DNA of 64,000 bases from NCBI RefSeq assembly GCF_030384885.1, contig NZ_CP128613.1, one strand, 5' to 3'. The notes below the pieces were generated by a model. It saw only the letters and a program-made list of their open reading frames with translations, was not told the DNA's origin and made no database searches. Below are positions 12,345 through 53,592 of the stretch, one piece after another. This DNA is from Escherichia coli. Lineage in GTDB: Bacteria > Pseudomonadota > Gammaproteobacteria > Enterobacterales > Enterobacteriaceae. A program made the translations under genes and the position numbers. Each line of letters opens with the position of its first letter. Position 1 is the stretch's first letter.

Positions 12345-15300
12345 ATGAGTAAACTTTTGGACCGCTTTCGCTACTTCAAACAAAAGGGCGAAACATTTGC
12401 CGATGGTCACGGCCAGGTGATGCATAGCAACCGCGACTGGGAGGACAGCTATCGCCAGCGTTGGCAGTTCGACAAAATCGTGCGTTCCACTCACGGCGTT
12501 AACTGTACAGGCTCCTGTAGCTGGAAAATCTACGTTAAAAATGGCCTGGTGACCTGGGAAATCCAACAGACCGACTACCCGCGCACTCGCCCTGACCTGC
12601 CCAATCATGAACCTCGCGGCTGCCCGCGTGGCGCAAGTTACTCCTGGTATCTTTACAGCGCTAACCGCCTGAAATACCCGCTCATTCGTAAACGACTGAT
12701 TGAACTGTGGCGCGAAGCCCTCAAGAAACACAGCGATCCGGTACTGGCGTGGGCATCGATTATGAACGATCCGCAAAAGTGCCTGAGCTACAAACAAGTG
12801 CGTGGGCGTGGCGGCTTTATCCGCTCCAACTGGCAGGAGCTAAACCAGTTGATTGCCGCCGCTAACGTCTGGACCATCAAAACTTACGGTCCTGATCGCG
12901 TTGCCGGTTTCTCGCCGATTCCGGCGATGTCGATGGTTTCTTACGCCGCCGGAACACGCTATCTGTCGCTGTTAGGTGGCACCTGTTTAAGTTTCTATGA
13001 CTGGTATTGCGACCTGCCGCCTGCCTCGCCGATGACCTGGGGCGAGCAAACCGACGTGCCAGAATCTGCCGACTGGTATAACTCCAGCTATATCATCGCC
13101 TGGGGTTCTAACGTACCGCAAACGCGCACACCAGACGCCCACTTCTTTACCGAAGTACGTTACAAAGGTACCAAAACTATCGCCATTACCCCGGACTACT
13201 CTGAAGTAGCCAAATTGTGCGACCAGTGGCTGGCACCGAAACAAGGCACTGATAGCGCCCTGGCGATGGCAATGGGCCATGTGATTTTAAAAGAGTTCCA
13301 TCTCGATAATTCCAGCGACTATTTTATCAACTACTGCCGCCGCTACAGCGACATGCCGATGCTGGTAATGCTGGAACCTCGCGACGATGGTAGCTACGTT
13401 CCCGGGCGCATGATCCGCGCGTCTGACCTGGTAGATGGGCTGGGCGAAAGCAACAATCCGCAGTGGAAAACCGTAGCAGTTAATACAGCAGGTGAACTGG
13501 TGGTGCCGAACGGTTCGATTGGTTTTCGCTGGGGAGAAAAAGGCAAATGGAATCTGGAATCCATTGCCGCCGGTACGGAAACCGAATTGTCGTTAACTCT
13601 GCTCGGTCAACATGATGCCGTTGCAGGCGTGGCCTTCCCCTACTTTGGCGGCATTGAAAATCCGCATTTTCGCAGCGTAAAACACAATCCGGTCCTGGTG
13701 CGCCAATTGCCCGTTAAAAACCTGACATTAGCCGATGGCAACACCTGTCCGGTCGTCAGCGTTTATGATCTGGTACTGGCAAATTACGGCCTCGATCGCG
13801 GGCTGGAAGATGAAAACAGCGCGAAAGATTACGCTGAAATCAAACCTTACACCCCAGCCTGGGGCGAGCAAATTACCGGCGTACCGCGCCAGTACATTGA
13901 AACCATCGCCCGCGAATTTGCCGATACCGCCCATAAAACGCATGGGCGCTCGATGATTATCCTCGGTGCTGGCGTCAACCATTGGTATCACATGGACATG
14001 AACTACCGTGGGATGATCAACATGCTGATCTTCTGCGGTTGTGTCGGGCAAAGCGGTGGCGGCTGGGCACACTATGTCGGTCAGGAAAAACTGCGCCCGC
14101 AAACCGGCTGGCTGCCTCTGGCCTTTGCACTCGACTGGAACCGACCACCGCGCCAGATGAACAGCACCTCGTTTTTCTACAATCACTCCAGTCAATGGCG
14201 CTATGAAAAAGTCTCTGCTCAGGAGTTACTTTCACCGCTCGCCGATGCCAGTAAGTACAGCGGTCATCTGATTGATTTCAACGTTCGCGCCGAACGTATG
14301 GGCTGGCTACCTTCTGCGCCGCAACTGGGGCGTAACCCGCTCGGGATTAAAGCTGAAGCCGACAAGGCCGGATTATCCCCCACAGAATTAACCGCCCAGG
14401 CGCTGAAATCGGGCGATTTACGCATGGCCTGCGAACAACCCGATAGCGGCAGCAATCATCCGCGTAATTTGTTTGTCTGGCGCTCTAACCTGCTTGGCTC
14501 CTCCGGCAAAGGCCACGAATATATGCAGAAGTATCTGCTGGGAACCGAAAGTGGGATTCAGGGTGAGGAACTCGGTGCCAGCGACGGGATCAAACCAGAA
14601 GAAGTCGAGTGGCAAACTGCGGCGATTGAAGGCAAGCTCGACCTGCTGGTGACGCTCGACTTCCGTATGTCCAGTACCTGCCTGTTCTCCGATATCGTTC
14701 TGCCCACCGCCACCTGGTACGAAAAAGACGATATGAATACCTCAGATATGCATCCGTTTATTCATCCACTTTCTGCGGCGGTCGATCCGGCGTGGGAATC
14801 ACGCAGCGACTGGGAAATCTACAAAGGTATTGCCAAAGCATTTTCGCAAGTGTGCGTAGGGCATCTTGGCAAAGAAACCGACGTGGTATTACAACCCCTA
14901 CTGCATGACTCTCCGGCAGAACTCTCCCAGCCGTGTGAAGTGCTCGACTGGCGCAAAGGCGAATGCGATCTGATCCCGGGTAAAACCGCGCCCAATATTG
15001 TAGCGGTGGAACGCGACTACCCTGCTACCTATGATCGCTTTACCTCGCTCGGGCCATTGATGGACAAACTTGGCAACGGCGGTAAAGGGATTTCGTGGAA
15101 TACCCAGGATGAAATCGATTTCCTCGGCAAACTCAATTACACCAAGCGTGATGGCCCGGCACAGGGGCGACCGCTGATTGACACCGCCATTGATGCATCA
15201 GAAGTGATACTGGCGCTGGCACCGGAAACCAACGGTCATGTTGCAGTCAAAGCGTGGCAGGCGCTGGGCGAGATCACCGGACGCGAACATACCCATCTGG

Positions 15301-16085
15301 CGCTGCACAAAGAGGACGAAAAGATCCGCTTTCGCGATATTCAGGCGCAGCCGCGTAAAATTATCTCCAGCCCCACATGGTCCGGTCTGGAAAGCGATCA
15401 CGTCTCCTACAACGCCGGATACACCAACGTTCATGAGTTAATTCCGTGGCGCACGCTGTCGGGGCGCCAGCAGGTCTATCAGGATCATCCGTGGATGCGT
15501 GCCTTTGGTGAAAGCCTGGTGGCTTATCGTCCGCCTATCGACACGCGCAGCGTCAGCGAAATGCGCCAGATACCACCAAACGGCTTCCCGGAAAGAGCAC
15601 TTAACTTCCTGACGCCGCATCAGAAATGGGGCATTCACTCAACCTACAGTGAAAACCTGCTAATGCTGACGCTCTCTCGCGGTGGACCGATTGTCTGGAT
15701 CAGCGAAACCGATGCCCGTGAATTGACCATTGTCGATAACGACTGGGTGGAAGTGTTTAACGCCAACGGCGCGCTGACTGCCCGCGCGGTGGTCAGCCAA
15801 CGTGTACCGCCGGGTATGACCATGATGTATCACGCTCAGGAACGCATTATGAATATTCCTGGTTCGGAAGTAACCGGCATGCGCGGCGGCATTCATAACT
15901 CGGTCACCCGCGTTTGTCCGAAACCAACGCATATGATTGGCGGTTACGCGCAGCTGGCCTGGGGCTTTAACTACTACGGCACCGTCGGCTCGAACCGCGA
16001 CGAATTCATCATGATCCGCAAGATGAAGAACGTTAACTGGTTGGATGATGAAGGTCGCGATCAGGTACAGGAGGCGAAAAAATGA
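12345..16085 (+). CDS. narZ: Respiratory nitrate reductase Z alpha subunit (Mo-bisMGD), 1246 aa
   Basis: Starts MSKLLDRFRYFKQKGETFADGHGQ with SD ggagcaggag; start trimmed from the longer ORF; overlaps narY by 4 nt. Confidence 0.92.
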   Translation: MSKLLDRFRYFKQKGETFADGHGQVMHSNRDWEDSYRQRWQFDKIVRSTHGVNCTGSCSWKIYVKNGLVTWEIQQTDYPRTRPDLPNHEPRGCPRGASYSWYLYSANRLKYPLIRKRLIELWREALKKHSDPVLAWASIMNDPQKCLSYKQVRGRGGFIRSNWQELNQLIAAANVWTIKTYGPDRVAGFSPIPAMSMVSYAAGTRYLSLLGGTCLSFYDWYCDLPPASPMTWGEQTDVPESADWYNSSYIIAWGSNVPQTRTPDAHFFTEVRYKGTKTIAITPDYSEVAKLCDQWLAPKQGTDSALAMAMGHVILKEFHLDNSSDYFINYCRRYSDMPMLVMLEPRDDGSYVPGRMIRASDLVDGLGESNNPQWKTVAVNTAGELVVPNGSIGFRWGEKGKWNLESIAAGTETELSLTLLGQHDAVAGVAFPYFGGIENPHFRSVKHNPVLVRQLPVKNLTLADGNTCPVVSVYDLVLANYGLDRGLEDENSAKDYAEIKPYTPAWGEQITGVPRQYIETIAREFADTAHKTHGRSMIILGAGVNHWYHMDMNYRGMINMLIFCGCVGQSGGGWAHYVGQEKLRPQTGWLPLAFALDWNRPPRQMNSTSFFYNHSSQWRYEKVSAQELLSPLADASKYSGHLIDFNVRAERMGWLPSAPQLGRNPLGIKAEADKAGLSPTELTAQALKSGDLRMACEQPDSGSNHPRNLFVWRSNLLGSSGKGHEYMQKYLLGTESGIQGEELGASDGIKPEEVEWQTAAIEGKLDLLVTLDFRMSSTCLFSDIVLPTATWYEKDDMNTSDMHPFIHPLSAAVDPAWESRSDWEIYKGIAKAFSQVCVGHLGKETDVVLQPLLHDSPAELSQPCEVLDWRKGECDLIPGKTAPNIVAVERDYPATYDRFTSLGPLMDKLGNGGKGISWNTQDEIDFLGKLNYTKRDGPAQGRPLIDTAIDASEVILALAPETNGHVAVKAWQALGEITGREHTHLALHKEDEKIRFRDIQAQPRKIISSPTWSGLESDHVSYNAGYTNVHELIPWRTLSGRQQVYQDHPWMRAFGESLVAYRPPIDTRSVSEMRQIPPNGFPERALNFLTPHQKWGIHSTYSENLLMLTLSRGGPIVWISETDARELTIVDNDWVEVFNANGALTARAVVSQRVPPGMTMMYHAQERIMNIPGSEVTGMRGGIHNSVTRVCPKPTHMIGGYAQLAWGFNYYGTVGSNRDEFIMIRKMKNVNWLDDEGRDQVQEAKK

Positions 16086-24135: not shown

Positions 24136-24203
24136 AATTGTTTAGTACAAAAAAGCAGCGTTAAGTGAGTAGGCCACCGGAACCTCCCCGACAGCCTCTC
24201 GCA

Positions 24204-24237
24204 GAACCGTACGTGAAACTCTCGCTTCATACGGCTC
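24204..24237 (-). other. Group II intron domain V (catalytic hairpin)
   Basis: GAGCCGUAUGAAGCGAGAGUUUCACGUACGGUUC: 10-bp stem GAGCCGUAUG/CGUACGGUUC with G-U pairs and the AGC triad. Confidence 0.8.
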
Positions 24238-24240
24238 CCG

Positions 24241-25758
24241 TCAGGCAAACGCGCTTCCTGGTCCTGCTTTCCAGTGGGCAAACAACTCCGGCTTCTCTTT
24301 TGACAGCCTTTCCATTAGCTGACACGCCTTCGTCTTTCTATACCGCAGGGTTTTATATTTCTTTCTCGCCCACGCAATCAGCGTCAGATTAATATATCTG
24401 CATACTTTCTTCATCGCTGATTTGTGGTATCTCGCGTAATAATTCAGCCACCCCGATATTATCGGATTCAGCCACTTCGCAATATCTTCGAGACTCATCT
24501 CCACCCTGCGTCTGATCCACAGTTTCCTGAGTTTTCCAATCATGCCTTTCTGCGCAAGGTTACTCGCCGCCGGGCTGAAACTCGTAAAGAGGTTTCCCCG
24601 CCGGTGGTTGCGTGCTCTTCGCGCTCTGAACGTATACCCCAGAAAATCAAACTGCACTGTTTCATGGTTCGCCTGTCGTTCGCTGTCTTTGCAGTAAACT
24701 ATTTTCGTTTTCTCCGGATGTAATTCCAGTCCACATTCCTGAAAACGTTTTGCCAGCTTATTCAGTAATTCCTCTGCCTGTTGTTTACTGCCACAATGAA
24801 TTAATCCATCATCTGCATAACGGCACCAGGGAATTTCCGGATAATGTAACGTCAGCCATTTATCAAACACATAGTGCAGAAATAAATTCGCCAGTACCGG
24901 GCTGATGACTCCACCCTGTGGCGTACCTTTATTTCTTTCCTTCAGTGTTCCATCCGGCATCTGCACCGGCGCTGTCAGCCACCGGCGAATAGACAGTCTT
25001 ACCCATTTATCCGCACAATGTTTATCTACTGCCCTGAGTAATAAATCGTGGGGGATATTATCGAATAACCCTTTAATATCAAACTCAAGACACCAGTCGT
25101 ATTGCCAGCAACGTTTTCTGGTGACTGCTATTGCATCCAGCGCTGATTTTCCATGCCGGTATCCGTATGAATCATTCAGGAAATAACGCTCCACTAATGG
25201 TTCAAACGTTACCAGCACCGTCATCTGCGCTATTCGATCGCTTACTGTCGGTATTCCTAAAAGTCTTTTGCTGCCATCCTTCTTCGGAATTTCCACCGCA
25301 CGCACTGGCGGCGGCATCCAGCTTCCCGACGATAACCTGTTCCAGATTTTGTACAGATTTCCTTTCAGATCCCGCTCAAAATCTTTCAGCGTCTGGTTAT
25401 CCACTCCGGCAGCTCCGGCATTCGCCTTTATCCGCCGGTACGCTTCCACCACATGCAATTTACTGACCTGAAACGGTTTTGTCTGTTCACACACAGCCTC
25501 CTCCTGCCTACAGTTGGGCTGTGATGCAGACTGCCCGACGCTGTCCCTTCGCTCCACGTTCATTACAAACGCTTCCTCACTACTACGAACAGCTCTGCCC
25601 CGGTTTCGCACATCGATACTCTCATACTCATAATTTCGGTTATTTGTATTTCTCTCTTGACATTGCGACGACCGGTTCCCGTAGTTCCTGCAAAGAGCCC
25701 GATACAGCGTCATGCCTGCTATACACCGGACACCATTCACGCAGCATTCGGAATTCAC
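24241..25758 (-). CDS. Group II intron reverse transcriptase/maturase (no obvious endonuclease domain); true start probably internal
   Basis: RT motifs including KANAGAAGVDNQTL, GTPQGGVISPVLANLFL and the YADD box (CRYADDGLIHC), then maturase X (PIISGWLNYYARY); no HNH Cys/His pattern at the C-terminus. Confidence 0.8.
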   Translation of the reverse strand: MNSECCVNGVRCIAGMTLYRALCRNYGNRSSQCQERNTNNRNYEYESIDVRNRGRAVRSSEEAFVMNVERRDSVGQSASQPNCRQEEAVCEQTKPFQVSKLHVVEAYRRIKANAGAAGVDNQTLKDFERDLKGNLYKIWNRLSSGSWMPPPVRAVEIPKKDGSKRLLGIPTVSDRIAQMTVLVTFEPLVERYFLNDSYGYRHGKSALDAIAVTRKRCWQYDWCLEFDIKGLFDNIPHDLLLRAVDKHCADKWVRLSIRRWLTAPVQMPDGTLKERNKGTPQGGVISPVLANLFLHYVFDKWLTLHYPEIPWCRYADDGLIHCGSKQQAEELLNKLAKRFQECGLELHPEKTKIVYCKDSERQANHETVQFDFLGYTFRARRARNHRRGNLFTSFSPAASNLAQKGMIGKLRKLWIRRRVEMSLEDIAKWLNPIISGWLNYYARYHKSAMKKVCRYINLTLIAWARKKYKTLRYRKTKACQLMERLSKEKPELFAHWKAGPGSAFA

Positions 25759-26050
25759 CCGTAAATTAATCCCGGCGGTATCATGAAACCTCCGGTTTTG
25801 ATGTCACTTAGGACTAACGACGTTTCAACACAGGTTCGGGTTTACTCATCTCACTGTATCTCACATAGGATCAGATCTCGTCTGATCGTTCCCCCTGCGC
25901 TCACTACCATGGCTCTTTACCACAGCAGCCGGGGTTGTTTGGGACCGACTTCCGACAGCAGATCCCGGTGGGCCTGCCACCATCTCTTCACAAGCTTATG
26001 CTTATTACATGCAAAACGTCCCGTTTTGCATCTTTGTGCCTACGGCACAC

Positions 26051-48015: not shown

Positions 48016-48255
<240 letters not shown>

Positions 48256-48430
48256 TTACCTCCGTGTGTAATGTGCTCGAAAATAGCACTAAATCGCCGC
48301 AACGGCAGAATGCAATGCAAAATCAGGAAGGAAGATTCCAGAATTTCTTTGCGCTAATTTGCAAAACTGAATAATAACCTCAAGAAACGATCGGCATCAT
48401 AGCGGCAAAAGGTCAGAAAAAGGTGGCGAG

Positions 48431-48661
48431 ATGTTTTCGAAGGCGTTATCGGTTGTCTTATTAACGTGTGCACTGTTCTCAGGACAACTCATGGCAGGGC
48501 ACAAAGGACATGAATTTATGTGGGTAAAGAATGTGGATCATCAGCTGCGTCATGAAGCGGACAGCGATGAATTGCGTGCTGTGGCGGAAGAGTCGGCGGA
48601 AGGTTTGCGCGAGCATTTTTACTGGCAAAAATCGCGCAAACCAGAAGCGGGACAGCGTTGA
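48431..48661 (+). CDS. yncJ: Small secreted protein, 76 aa
   Basis: Signal peptide and sequence MFSKALSVVLLTCALFSGQLMAGHKGHEFMWVK. Confidence 0.8.
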   Translation: MFSKALSVVLLTCALFSGQLMAGHKGHEFMWVKNVDHQLRHEADSDELRAVAEESAEGLREHFYWQKSRKPEAGQR

Positions 48662-48669
48662 GTCATTTG

Positions 48670-48705
48670 TTGCCGGATGCGGCATAACGCCTTACCCGGC
48701 CGACA
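48670..48705. repeat. REP element after yncJ
   Basis: tgccggatgcggcataacgccttacccggcc matches the REP consensus. Confidence 0.6.
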
Positions 48706-48752
48706 AGATCATGCAGATTCAATAAGTTGTGAGTAACCAGAAAACTGGCGTT

Positions 48753-50714
48753 TTACCCTTTTCGCTTCGGCAATGTTTTCAGCAGCTCATCCGGACTAAC
48801 GGATGCCACTACGCTTCCCGGTAACGGCATTTTCAGTATGTGATTTTTGATTTTGCCAATGACGTGCATCTCACATGGGCGACAATCGAACTTTAGCGTT
48901 AATACTTCATCGCCATTAACCAGTTGCATTGGCGTCGCCTTCCAGCTTTTGATGTTACCTTTTGCCTGTTTCGGACACAGATTGAAGGCAAAGCGCAGAC
49001 AATGCTTGGTGATCATTACCGGCACTTCCCCCTTCTCTTCATGCGCTTCATACGCCGCATCAATCAGTTGCACACCATAGCGATGATAAAATTCACGCGC
49101 TTTGTGGTTGTAAACGTTCGCGAGGAAACTCAAATGCGTTTGCGGATAAACCGGCGCAGGGTCAGCAACCGGTTTACGACTGCCGCGCTGATAACTGGCA
49201 AGACGCGCAGCATCCAGCATTTCGGCGGCCTCACGGCGGAACTGATTTAACAGACTGTTCGGTACAAACAGCGCACCAGGCAAATTAATTTGCACATCGC
49301 GGGCGTAATAGAGGGTTTGCCCCAGCTTAGCCAGACCATCTTTCAGGTTATTAAGCGCTTTTTCGGCGTTATTAGCTTCGTCGAATTGTCCATCCAGCGT
49401 ATGCGTGACGCTGACGCCCTCTTCACTGGTCAGGGTCAGAATCAGTTGTTCCTGCCAGCCGCCCAGTTCAATGTCTACCGCTACGCGACGTTCGCTGGAT
49501 GTTTTGGTCAACGCCTGCTGCCAGTTATGGTCCAGATTACGATTAAGCGGATGATGCGGACGAATTTTATGCAAATCCGCAGGCATCTCATTTGGCCAGA
49601 CGCGGTACTGATTTTGCCCGGTTTTTTCGACTGTATTGGCGCGAAAGCCAACCACTTCACGTTTAATCATCACATTCAGACCATCGCCATTTGCTAACGG
49701 CTCGGTGACGGCAACATCGAGATGATCCTTCGCCACTTTTAATACTTCACCGACCGGCAGGCCGATAAACTTGGGGGAGTCGAACGCGCCGATATCCCCT
49801 TTACGGGCGTTAACAAAGTAGTCGGTACTGCCACGATGGAAGGTTTTTTCCGTCGACGGTACGAAGAAATGCTCGGTACGACCGGATGAAGCACGCGCCA
49901 GATCGCCACGTTCATCAATAATGGCGTCCAGCATTTGGCGATAATGCGCGGTGATATTCTTCACGTAGCTCATATCTTTGTAACGCCCTTCAATCTTGAA
50001 GGAGCGCACGCCAGCATCAATCAGCGCGCCAAGGTTAGCAGTCTGATCGTTATCTTTCATCGACAGCAGATGTTTTTCATAGGAAACCACCCGCCCCTGA
50101 TCGTCTTTCAATGTGTATGGCAAACGGCATGCCTGCGAGCAATCGCCACGGTTGGCGCTACGCCCTGTTTGCGCATGAGAAATGTAGCACTGACCAGAAT
50201 AGGCCACGCACAATGCACCATGAATAAAGAATTCAATGGTCGCGTCCGTGGCCTGGTGAATCGCGCGGATCTGCTCAAGATTCAGCTCTCGCGCCAGCAC
50301 AATCTGCGTAAAGCCAACATCAGAGAGGAACTTCGCTTTTTCTACTGTGCGAATATCGCACTGCGTACTGGCGTGCAGTTCAATCGGCGGAATATCAAGT
50401 TCCAGAATCCCCATATCCTGAACAATCAGCGCATCGACGCCGGTCTGGTAGAGGTCGGTAATCAGCCGTTGCGCAGGGTCCAGCTCATCATCATGCAAAA
50501 TGGTGTTAAGCGTGACGAAAATTTTTGCACCATAACGATGGGCAAACGGCACCAGTTCGGCAATATCTTTCAGGCTATTACTGGCATTATGACGGGCACC
50601 AAAACCAGGGCCGCCGATATAAACAGCATCGGCACCGTGCAAAATAGCTTCGCGGGCAATGGCGGCATCGCGTGCCGGGCTTAACAGTTCAAGTCGATGA
50701 GAAGATACGGTCAC
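48753..50714 (-). CDS. rlhA: U32 peptidase-family protein (23S rRNA hydroxycytidine synthase homolog), about 653 aa; GTG start assumed
   Basis: U32 family signature region (EFFIHGALCVAYSGQCYIS); start set at the internal GTG (VTVSSHRLELLSPA) by length; the ORF extends to 50756. Confidence 0.8.
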   Translation of the reverse strand: MTVSSHRLELLSPARDAAIAREAILHGADAVYIGGPGFGARHNASNSLKDIAELVPFAHRYGAKIFVTLNTILHDDELDPAQRLITDLYQTGVDALIVQDMGILELDIPPIELHASTQCDIRTVEKAKFLSDVGFTQIVLARELNLEQIRAIHQATDATIEFFIHGALCVAYSGQCYISHAQTGRSANRGDCSQACRLPYTLKDDQGRVVSYEKHLLSMKDNDQTANLGALIDAGVRSFKIEGRYKDMSYVKNITAHYRQMLDAIIDERGDLARASSGRTEHFFVPSTEKTFHRGSTDYFVNARKGDIGAFDSPKFIGLPVGEVLKVAKDHLDVAVTEPLANGDGLNVMIKREVVGFRANTVEKTGQNQYRVWPNEMPADLHKIRPHHPLNRNLDHNWQQALTKTSSERRVAVDIELGGWQEQLILTLTSEEGVSVTHTLDGQFDEANNAEKALNNLKDGLAKLGQTLYYARDVQINLPGALFVPNSLLNQFRREAAEMLDAARLASYQRGSRKPVADPAPVYPQTHLSFLANVYNHKAREFYHRYGVQLIDAAYEAHEEKGEVPVMITKHCLRFAFNLCPKQAKGNIKSWKATPMQLVNGDEVLTLKFDCRPCEMHVIGKIKNHILKMPLPGSVVASVSPDELLKTLPKRKG

Positions 50715-50786
50715 ATTCTTATCCAGTAGCTGAAAAATGGCGGCTATTTTAGCCACAAGCGCGACGTTGCGAAATAGTTTTCCCGC

Positions 50787-51323
50787 TTAACTGCGTGGGT
50801 AATGGATGAGGGAATGAAAATGTACGATTTGCTCCCCACCATTACGATAGACATGCGTAACGTCTGCAGCAAATCGAGCGCCTTTTCCACAATTAAGGCT
50901 CTGCCATTCACCATCAACGCACAGATCAAGTTGCCCATCAATGACGACAACATGTTCGATTACTCCCTTCTCATGGGGCGTCGATTCACTTATTGCACCG
51001 GGAGCCATCTGAATTGAGAAGTGTTCAAAGCAGAGTTGCGGATCATAAGGAAACAGCGAAGTGATCACCATCGCCTGCTGTTGCGGATCATAAACTGAAG
51101 GCGTAGCGGACTGCGGCGGAGAAATAAATGTCGAAAATGGCACATTCAACCCGGTGGCAATTTTCCATAATGTCGCGACCGTCGGGCTGGACTCATTACG
51201 TTCAATCTGCCCTAACATCGCTTTAGAAACCCCCGTCGCTTCTGCCAGTCGCGAAAGACTCCAGCCGCGCTGCTGACGTAGTTGTTTAAGTGTGGTGGAT
51301 AAAAAGCGAGTGAGATTTTCCAT
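50787..51323 (-). CDS. sutR: XRE-HTH/cupin transcriptional regulator, 178 aa
   Basis: HTH LAEATGVSKAMLGQIERNESSPTVATLWKIA plus C-terminal cupin. Confidence 0.85.
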   Translation of the reverse strand: MENLTRFLSTTLKQLRQQRGWSLSRLAEATGVSKAMLGQIERNESSPTVATLWKIATGLNVPFSTFISPPQSATPSVYDPQQQAMVITSLFPYDPQLCFEHFSIQMAPGAISESTPHEKGVIEHVVVIDGQLDLCVDGEWQSLNCGKGARFAADVTHVYRNGGEQIVHFHSLIHYPRS

Positions 51324-51414
51324 GTGACTCCTCCGGCAAAGCGGAAGTTTATCACTTGTGCGTTATAACGGACAAATGCTACGGTACCTGTACGCTATAA
51401 CGCACGAGGTGACC

Positions 51415-52587
51415 ATGCGTCTGTTTTCTATTCCTCCACCCACGCTACTGGCGGGGTTTCTGGCGGTATTAATTGGCTACGCCAGTTCAGCGGCAATAAT
51501 CTGGCAAGCAGCGATTGTCGCCGGAGCCACCACTGCACAAATCTCTGGCTGGATGACGGCGCTGGGGCTGGCAATGGGCGTCAGTACGCTGGCTCTGACA
51601 TTATGGTATCGCGTACCTGTTCTCACTGCATGGTCAACGCCGGGCGCAGCTTTGCTGGTTACCGGATTGCAGGGACTGACACTTAACCAAGCCATCGGTG
51701 TTTTTATTGTCACCAACGCGTTAATAGTCCTCTGTGGTGTGACGGGATTATTCGCCCGTTTGATGCGTATTATTCCGCACTCGCTGGCAGCGGCGATGCT
51801 GGCCGGAATTTTGTTACGCTTTGGTTTACAGGCGTTTGCAAGTCTGGATGGTCAGTTTACGTTATGCGGTAGTATGTTGCTGGCGTGGCTGGCGACAAAA
51901 ACTTTTGCGCCGCGTTATGCGGTAATTGCGGCGATGATAGTTGGCATCGTAATCGTTATTTTACAAGGTGACGTTGTCACAGGGGATATTGCCTTTAAAC
52001 CCGTTCTCCCCGCTTATATTGCCCCTGAATTTTCGTTTGCTCACAGTCTGAGCGTTGCACTCCCCCTTTTTCTGGTGACGATGGCATCGCAAAACGCACC
52101 GGGTATTGCGGCAATGAAAGCGGCCGGGTATTCGGCTCCTGTTTCGCCGTTGATTGTATTTACTGGATTGCTGGCGCTGGTATTTTCCCCTTTCGGGGTT
52201 TATTCCGTCGGTATTGCTGCAATCACCGCAGCTATTTGTCAAAGCCCGGAAGCGCATCCGGATAAAGATCAACGTTGGCTGGCAGCTGCCGTTGCAGGCA
52301 TTTTTTATTTGCTCGCAGGTCTTTTTGGTAGTGCTATTACCGGGATGATGGCTGCCCTGCCCGTAAGTTGGATCCAGATGCTGGCAGGTCTGGCGCTGTT
52401 AAGTACCATTGGCGGCAGTTTGTATCAGGCGCTGCATAATGAGCGTGAGCGAGACGCGGCGGTGGTGGCATTTCTGGTAACGGCAAGTGGATTGACGCTG
52501 GTCGGGATTGGTTCTGCGTTCTGGGGATTAATTGCCGGAGGCGTTTGTTACGTGGTGTTGAATTTAATCGCTGACAGAAACCGATAA
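51415..52587 (+). CDS. ydcO: BenE-family benzoate-type transporter, about 390 aa
   Basis: Polytopic membrane protein; start set at ATG 51415 after SD gaggtgacc. Confidence 0.82.
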   Translation: MRLFSIPPPTLLAGFLAVLIGYASSAAIIWQAAIVAGATTAQISGWMTALGLAMGVSTLALTLWYRVPVLTAWSTPGAALLVTGLQGLTLNQAIGVFIVTNALIVLCGVTGLFARLMRIIPHSLAAAMLAGILLRFGLQAFASLDGQFTLCGSMLLAWLATKTFAPRYAVIAAMIVGIVIVILQGDVVTGDIAFKPVLPAYIAPEFSFAHSLSVALPLFLVTMASQNAPGIAAMKAAGYSAPVSPLIVFTGLLALVFSPFGVYSVGIAAITAAICQSPEAHPDKDQRWLAAAVAGIFYLLAGLFGSAITGMMAALPVSWIQMLAGLALLSTIGGSLYQALHNERERDAAVVAFLVTASGLTLVGIGSAFWGLIAGGVCYVVLNLIADRNR

Positions 52588-52616
52588 TAAAAAGCGCCAT
52601 CTTACGATGGCGCGGC
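52588..52616. terminator. Bidirectional terminator between convergent ydcO and ydcL
   Basis: Stem gcgccatc/gatggcgc with loop ttac, A-run upstream (U-run on the minus strand). Confidence 0.6.
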
Positions 52617-52621
52617 TGGAA

Positions 52622-53290
52622 TTACTTTTTGTTAACGTCAAACATAGTGGCATCGGTCGCCATGTCATCAATAACTTGCTTAATATTCTCGAAAGCCATT
52701 GGCGTACTTTCATTATTCAGGTCTTTACCTTCGCCCTGACGAACGACTTTGATAACCGGTTTATTAGTAGCTGCATCAATCAGCTCACCTTCAAAATACA
52801 GGCGAGTATCCATGGTACGGTGGCCCGTCGCCATTTGCGTCCCCGCGACCACTAATGCGACAGGAACCACTTCATAGAATTGCAGCCCTTCTTTGCTGGT
52901 ATCTACACCGGTAATGGCCCCACGGAAAATCAGACTACGCGGCCCAGCGGTGGTAACCAGTGGTTTACGCTGCGCAATCGCTTCTTTCATTTCGGTGTTG
53001 GTATAACTCAAAATTTTATCCAGAACTTTCTGCCCTACCTGGGTAGATGGTTTCGGTACCGGATAATAAGTGATTGGGTTCCAGACGATGCTGTCATATT
53101 TACTTTGATCAAAACTCGGGTCTACCCAACGTAAAACAGGTTTACCTGTTGCTGAGGTTGTTTCTTTTAAATCAGAGTAATTGTTTAAAAAACCAGAATA
53201 TTTATCTGGCTGGGTGATTTTAGAGGCACAACCAGACAGAGCCAACAAGCCGCATAAAGCTGCAACTTTCGCAATTGATGTGGTACGCAT
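52622..53290 (-). CDS. ydcL: Lipoprotein, 222 aa
   Basis: Lipobox LALSGC and sequence/neighbourhood. Confidence 0.85.
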   Translation of the reverse strand: MRTTSIAKVAALCGLLALSGCASKITQPDKYSGFLNNYSDLKETTSATGKPVLRWVDPSFDQSKYDSIVWNPITYYPVPKPSTQVGQKVLDKILSYTNTEMKEAIAQRKPLVTTAGPRSLIFRGAITGVDTSKEGLQFYEVVPVALVVAGTQMATGHRTMDTRLYFEGELIDAATNKPVIKVVRQGEGKDLNNESTPMAFENIKQVIDDMATDATMFDVNKK

Positions 53291-53388
53291 GAATAGTTTC
53301 CTGAGATGATTATATTACTTTCTAAGTTATAGCAAAAAGCACCGCTTCGTGTTGTGGCAAAAAAAGTGTTGGTGAAAATAAATTTTTC

Positions 53389-53430
53389 AGCCCCTTTTCA
53401 GACGACATAGTCAATGCCGAAAAAGGGGCT
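53389..53430. other. Long-loop inverted repeat in the ydcL-tehB intergenic region
   Basis: agccccttttc ... gaaaaaggggct, 11-12 bp arms with a 19-nt spacer. Confidence 0.4.
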
Positions 53431-53592
53431 AAGTCAATCATCAGTAGTTAAATTTCAGTAAGTTAAGCTGCTAAAAAACTTCGACTACTGTGATTAATTT
53501 CACATCCATTCGATAAAAAATATGCTTACCGAAAAGAAGAACAGTAGACCATCTCAGCGTGGGGAATTTTCACGCGCCTTGTTCTTACCAGG

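Follow-up and report, generated by a model that had tools for sequence, protein, structure and literature searches.

An uninterrupted ydcO–ydcL junction at the IS609 insertion site of a divergent Escherichia coli lineage

Results

The ydcO–ydcL junction and its terminator

In the window, by which we mean the whole 64-kb stretch of DNA analysed, ydcO on the plus strand and ydcL on the minus strand converge on an unoccupied intergenic spacer of 34 bp (52588..52621). An earlier inspection made without database searches (the sequence-only reading) had described two convergent genes about 35 bp apart, and the sequence and the list of open reading frames bear this out. ydcO (51376..52587, plus strand) encodes a BenE-family transporter (Pfam BenE, 2e-160) and ydcL (52622..53290, minus strand) a DUF3313 lipoprotein (Pfam DUF3313, 2e-62). 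The RefSeq annotation of NZ_CP027579.1 (strain 2013C-4282), a record 100% identical to the window, gives both genes the same names and the same ends, with ydcO at L004 2277..3488, equal to window 51376..52587. Translation of the 3′ end of ydcO gives ...ADRNR-TAA; this stop codon (52585..52587, plus strand) is followed directly by a second in-frame TAA, and the plus strand across the junction reads ...GAC AGA AAC CGA TAA TAA AAAGCGCCATCTTACGATGGCGCGGCTGGAA TTA CTT TTT.... The spacer has the same length in CFT073 (L011 7613..7646) and in CP089930.1, deposited as ‘E. coli E69’ (L005 13283..13316).

Both a terminator scan and folding identified one hairpin in the spacer (52594..52613), which reads GCGCCATC-gtaa-GATGGCGC on the minus strand and GCGCCATC-ttac-GATGGCGC on the plus strand. 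It begins 8 nt past the ydcL stop codon and has the G+C-rich stem-loop of an intrinsic terminator, with an 8-bp stem containing six G-C pairs and a 4-nt loop. On both strands it folds better than shuffled controls do (minus strand, z = -2.6; plus strand, z = -3.3). In the ydcL direction the stem is followed, directly on its 3′ side, by the U-tract TTTTTATTAT (52584..52593, minus strand), which was seen in the sequence as well as in the terminator scan and overlaps the ydcO stop codons. The stem is invariant across the window, E69, MG1655 and E597, but there is variation in the loop (GTAA or GTTA) and on either side of the hairpin, a pattern that fits selection acting on the stem. We infer that the hairpin is a canonical Rho-independent terminator, at which transcription of ydcL would end.

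The sequence-only reading had called this structure one bidirectional terminator. The single hairpin and its U-tract for ydcL stood, but the second direction did not: towards ydcL from ydcO, an A-tract precedes the stem, but what follows the stem is GGCTGGAATTAC, with no U-tract. That the hairpin nonetheless stops transcripts of both genes could be argued from its being the only one between two convergent genes, and from a longer plus-strand structure (-18.7 kcal/mol, z = -3.3), in which the run of A residues preceding the stem can base-pair with a CUUUUUG that lies 12 nt past the stem. Yet the GGCUGGAAUUAC after the plus-strand stem is not a U-tract, the consensus scan of both strands reported a site on the minus strand only, and the plus-strand U-rich stretch comes 12 nt after the stem, within the ydcL coding sequence. 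Bidirectionality is not established, because the U-tract is found on the ydcL side only, and we regard a true bidirectional terminator for ydcO and ydcL as rather unlikely. The hairpin resembles the Rho-independent terminators of convergent genes in its G+C-rich 8-bp stem, its 4-nt loop after a stop codon and its U-tract for ydcL; unlike the usual bidirectional terminators, it lacks a U-tract in the ydcO direction.

IS609 occupies the junction in K-12

The genome of K-12 MG1655 (NC_000913.3) carries an annotated ‘insertion sequence:IS609’ of 1748 bp between ydcL and ydcO, at 1503161..1504908, containing yncK (a tnpA pseudogene) and insQ (tnpB; ‘putative RNA-guided DNA endonuclease’). BLAST of a 14-kb MG1655 region (L001) against the window returned two colinear blocks, L001 1..5161 matching window 57747..52587 and L001 6910..11242 matching window 52586..48254, so that the flanks abut at window 52587/52586. 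The breakpoints fall at L001 5161/5162 and 6909/6910, and exactly 1748 bp are absent from the window. On its minus strand the window reads GCGCTTTTTAT/TATCGGTTTC, and the same strand of MG1655 reads GCGCTTTTTAT/CCGGTGCG...GGATGTCAA/TATCGGTTTC. Between the empty and the occupied allele there is no scar and no target duplication, and the boundary is unambiguous, as at an empty site of the IS200/IS605 family. The annotation and the BLAST breakpoints confirm the statement, in the sequence-only reading, that K-12 MG1655 has an IS609-type element (insQ) at ydcO–ydcL; in the alignment that it had proposed as a check, MG1655 shows the 1748-bp element and not the compact junction.

The position of the insertion needed refinement. 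It is indeed at the ydcO–ydcL junction, but it falls within the ydcO stop codon rather than in the spacer proper: the element sits between the second and third base of TAA (TA/A, between 52586 and 52587), one base outside the interval to which it had first been assigned. The translations differ as a result of the IS end, which supplies a TGA stop spanning the junction in the K-12-type allele: K-12 YdcO ends ...DRNRY-TGA, one Tyr codon (TAT) longer than window YdcO, which ends ...DRNR-TAA. The window shares with K-12 the flanks of IS609, here joined at the insertion point, together with the TTTAT motif and the 20 nt downstream. It differs from K-12 in lacking the element, both at the junction and throughout; BLAST of the MG1655 region found no IS609-like DNA elsewhere in the 64-kb window.

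Target motif and coding content of IS609

We compared IS609 copies at three loci: ydcL/ydcO in MG1655, gltX/yfeD in EDL933 and within yajI in fS10a. In each of them TTTAT precedes the left end, and the sequence beyond the right end is unrelated. Partial matches at other loci to a ydcL–IS609 query begin at query position 96–97, that is, 4–5 flank bases before the IS. On this sequence comparison the IS609 target motif is (T)TTAT, used without duplication, in keeping with the IS200/IS605 family. In the window, the TTTAT that immediately precedes the IS609 left end in occupied genomes lies at 52587..52591 (minus strand), and TATCGGTTTCTGTCAGCGAT at 52567..52586 (minus strand) corresponds to the 20 nt flanking the right end in K-12 (identical to L001 6910..6929). 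The minus strand thus reads TTAT/TATCGGTTTCTGTCAGCGAT, a juxtaposition of motif and right-end flank that is true by construction for any empty site.

The three copies (L001 5162..5657 region, L008 and L009) are each exactly 1748 bp and align without gaps. In MG1655, tnpA is split by a frameshift, with the HVH motif in one frame and ...IRQYIEQQ in another, in agreement with its annotation as a pseudogene; in the EDL933 and fS10a copies, too, the annotation lists tnpA as a partial pseudogene. Because the 1748-bp alignment is gapless, the MG1655 frameshift is presumably common to both of these copies. IS609 either moved after tnpA had decayed, was mobilised in trans, or has a split tnpA that is still somehow expressed.

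InsQ (402 aa) aligns with ISDra2 TnpB over nearly its full length (E = 1.9e-54) and has the Pfam domains HTH_OrfB_IS605, OrfB_IS605 and Cas12f1-like_TNB. In the alignment, its GLDAG, IEDL and NADVN motifs, which hold the RuvC acidic residues, look intact. With InsQ and a remnant of tnpA, the gene for a Y1 HUH transposase, IS609 has the TnpA/TnpB coding content of the IS200/IS605 family. An Rfam scan of the MG1655 locus matched no family to IS609, so there is no curated omega-RNA family for it. Our literature search found nothing on InsQ activity or on the ydcO–ydcL junction; IS609 appears mostly in mobile-element inventories.

Among relatives, IS608 inserts after TTAC and ISDra2 after TTGAT, and their excised empty sites are the substrate of omega RNA-guided TnpB. 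IS609 resembles these elements in lying 3′ of a short fixed motif, in having no target duplication and no terminal inverted repeats, in the imperfect hairpins at its ends, and in a motif that adjoins sequence identical to the right-end flank. It is unlike them in the motif itself, (T)TTAT rather than TTAC or TTGAT, and in that InsQ activity and an IS609 omega RNA are putative. Under the TnpB/omega-RNA model, TATCGGTTTCTGTCAGCGAT beside TTAT would be the guide-matching target. The motif strand in MG1655 (plus at 1.50 Mb, right replichore) is presumably the lagging-strand template, the preferred target strand of the family.

Empty and occupied alleles across E. coli

To place the two alleles, we searched 5,426 complete E. 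coli genomes with a 200-bp query centred on the junction, which matched 5,416. The junction was uninterrupted in 2,043 of the 5,416 matching genomes, and the K-12-type junction between ydcL and the IS609 left end was complete in 3,267 (~60%). Most complete E. coli genomes are occupied (3,267 versus 2,043 that are empty), so IS609 at this site is not a K-12 peculiarity. Occupied genomes among the matches listed include K-12 derivatives, B7A, O111 and O121, which we take to belong to phylogroups A and B1; the empty-site genomes would, on the same assumption, belong to B2 and E.

We also used a 1-kb query, with which an insert no longer than 1 kb does not break the match; it joined 2,135 genomes as one place, compared with 2,043 for the shorter query; therefore about 92 genomes carry a short insert. 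The two of these that we examined, E597 and 2022N21-074, have a 709-bp IS200C in the spacer (L002 1990..2700 in E597; L003 in 2022N21-074), located only a few bases away from where IS609 inserts, within the T-run of the ydcL terminator. The spacer has been struck independently by two elements of the IS200/IS605 family, IS609 and IS200C.

The window belongs to a divergent lineage

The sequence-only reading had proposed that the window comes from a lineage other than MG1655, which proved correct and even understated. The window matches the clinical isolate 2013C-4282 at 100% identity, and by BLAST its flanks are 94.1% (ydcO–rlhA side) and 97.2% (ydcL side) identical to MG1655, while the differences among MG1655, E597 and CFT073 amount to only 1–2% over 3.5 kb of flanks. 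At narZ (12500..15500), 2013C-4282 alone exceeded 99% identity among the 5,426 complete E. coli genomes, the next best reaching 96.3%. These values suggest that 2013C-4282 represents a deep-branching lineage filed as E. coli, possibly a cryptic clade.

IS-free K-12 strains exist, and a compact junction could be an artificial one in an engineered, IS-removed K-12 derivative (MDS-type). The flanks, however, are just 94–97% identical to MG1655, and the whole window matches a clinical isolate at 100%; we rejected this origin given the divergence of the flanks from MG1655.

The empty junction in Escherichia and its relatives

Four separate lineages have the empty junction: CFT073, in which the sequence is that of the MG1655 flanks with IS609 removed; O157:H7 genomes; the window; and E69. 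We found E69 with a degenerate ydcO C-terminus pattern searched against contigs of a collection with one genome per GTDB species. The pattern matched a single locus, that of E69, and recovered neither E. albertii nor E. fergusonii nor the E. coli species representative. E69 is only ~89–92% identical to the E. coli sequences compared at tehAB–ydcL–ydcO and probably represents a non-coli Escherichia species deposited as E. coli. A search for YdcL homologues, combined with a cluster listing, placed all Escherichia sequences in one 90% cluster whose listed members were all named E. coli; it yielded no further outgroup from Escherichia but did supply the C. koseri locus.

A neighbour-joining tree of 3.5 kb of flanks gave the topology (C. 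koseri,(E69,(window,(MG1655,(E597,CFT073))))), with E69 and the window outside the group formed by MG1655, CFT073 and E597. C. koseri keeps the neighbourhood and has no IS, with EamA-type and AraC-type genes lying between ydcL and ydcO. These two extra genes restrict the ancestral status of the compact junction to Escherichia.

Elements of the IS200/IS605 family excise seamlessly, and an empty site taken by itself is indistinguishable from a site after loss. The window could accordingly descend from an ancestor with IS609, its original sequence restored by precise peel-and-paste excision. Such scarless excision is known for the family, the occupied allele is the commoner one (3,267 versus 2,043 genomes), and many occupied genomes match the window at 99–100% identity over the final 100 bp of ydcO, all of which would sit well with a secondary loss. 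Against it, the window lineage and E69 are both empty and both branch outside the MG1655/CFT073 group, CFT073 and O157:H7 are also empty, and no IS609-like DNA occurs elsewhere in the 64-kb window. The machinery speaks against it too: the resident tnpA is frameshifted, and in K-12 mutation-accumulation lines IS609 was a single copy with no transposition detected (PMC5009759). We consider secondary excision very improbable.

The preferred reading is that the empty 34-bp junction is the ancestral, unoccupied form of the IS609 site and that the window never received IS609, to which we assign a probability of roughly 0.9; its polarity is based on few reference genomes and one locus tree, and recombination could move either allele between lineages. 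The suggestion in the sequence-only reading of an uninterrupted ancestral junction is supported by the empty sites of CFT073, O157:H7 and E69 together with the flank tree. The simplest history, we infer, is one ancient insertion within E. coli sensu stricto behind all occupied genomes.

Other features of the window

The second BLAST block ends at window 48254, where the window lacks 444 bp (L001 11243..11686) that in MG1655 contain hicA and the beginning of hicB. Of HicB only the C-terminal HTH portion persists, as a 67-aa open reading frame (48016..48219, minus strand), and the CFT073 annotation shows the same N-terminal truncation of hicB. Elsewhere, Rfam reported a piece of a group II intron on each side of a 505-aa open reading frame (24241..25758), namely RF00029 at 24164..24239 and RF01999 at 25864..25981; the interval 24164..25981 (minus strand) appears to be a complete group II intron that encodes its reverse transcriptase/maturase. 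Rfam also reported a SECIS element (4682..4740, minus strand, 84 bits), which from synteny with CFT073 probably belongs to fdnG, and the sRNA RydC (63903..63966, plus strand, 80 bits). Both SECIS and RydC are expected features of this chromosomal region.

Discussion

The comparison suggests how the occupied allele probably arose. The U-tract of the ydcL terminator runs into the ydcO stop codons, and this overlap creates the TTTAT motif on the minus strand. One IS609 copy, with a decayed tnpA and an apparently intact tnpB/insQ, would have entered the site in the ancestry of K-12 and many other E. coli, inserting directly 3′ of TTTAT, between the second and third base of the ydcO TAA. The insertion left no target duplication, as in the IS200/IS605 family. 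In genomes occupied in this way, ydcO gains a TAT codon and stops at the junction-spanning TGA.

Presence or absence of IS609 at ydcO–ydcL is an ordinary strain polymorphism and already known, since the element is part of the K-12 annotation and many published genomes show the empty site. What the present analysis adds is the placement of the IS609 target, with (T)TTAT lying inside a stop codon and a terminator tail. The empty junction also marks the window as belonging not to K-12 but to a very divergent E. coli lineage, that of 2013C-4282.

The empty and occupied alleles offer a convenient natural pair for testing InsQ/TnpB activity in E. coli. The empty junction might itself be a natural cleavage target of InsQ guided from the ydcO 3′ end, and such cutting might have helped IS609 to reach and keep a frequency of ~60%; we judge this very improbable. 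If it were true, a non-transposing IS609 could spread and persist at one site through RNA-guided cleavage of empty alleles that follows recombination or the transfer of DNA between strains.
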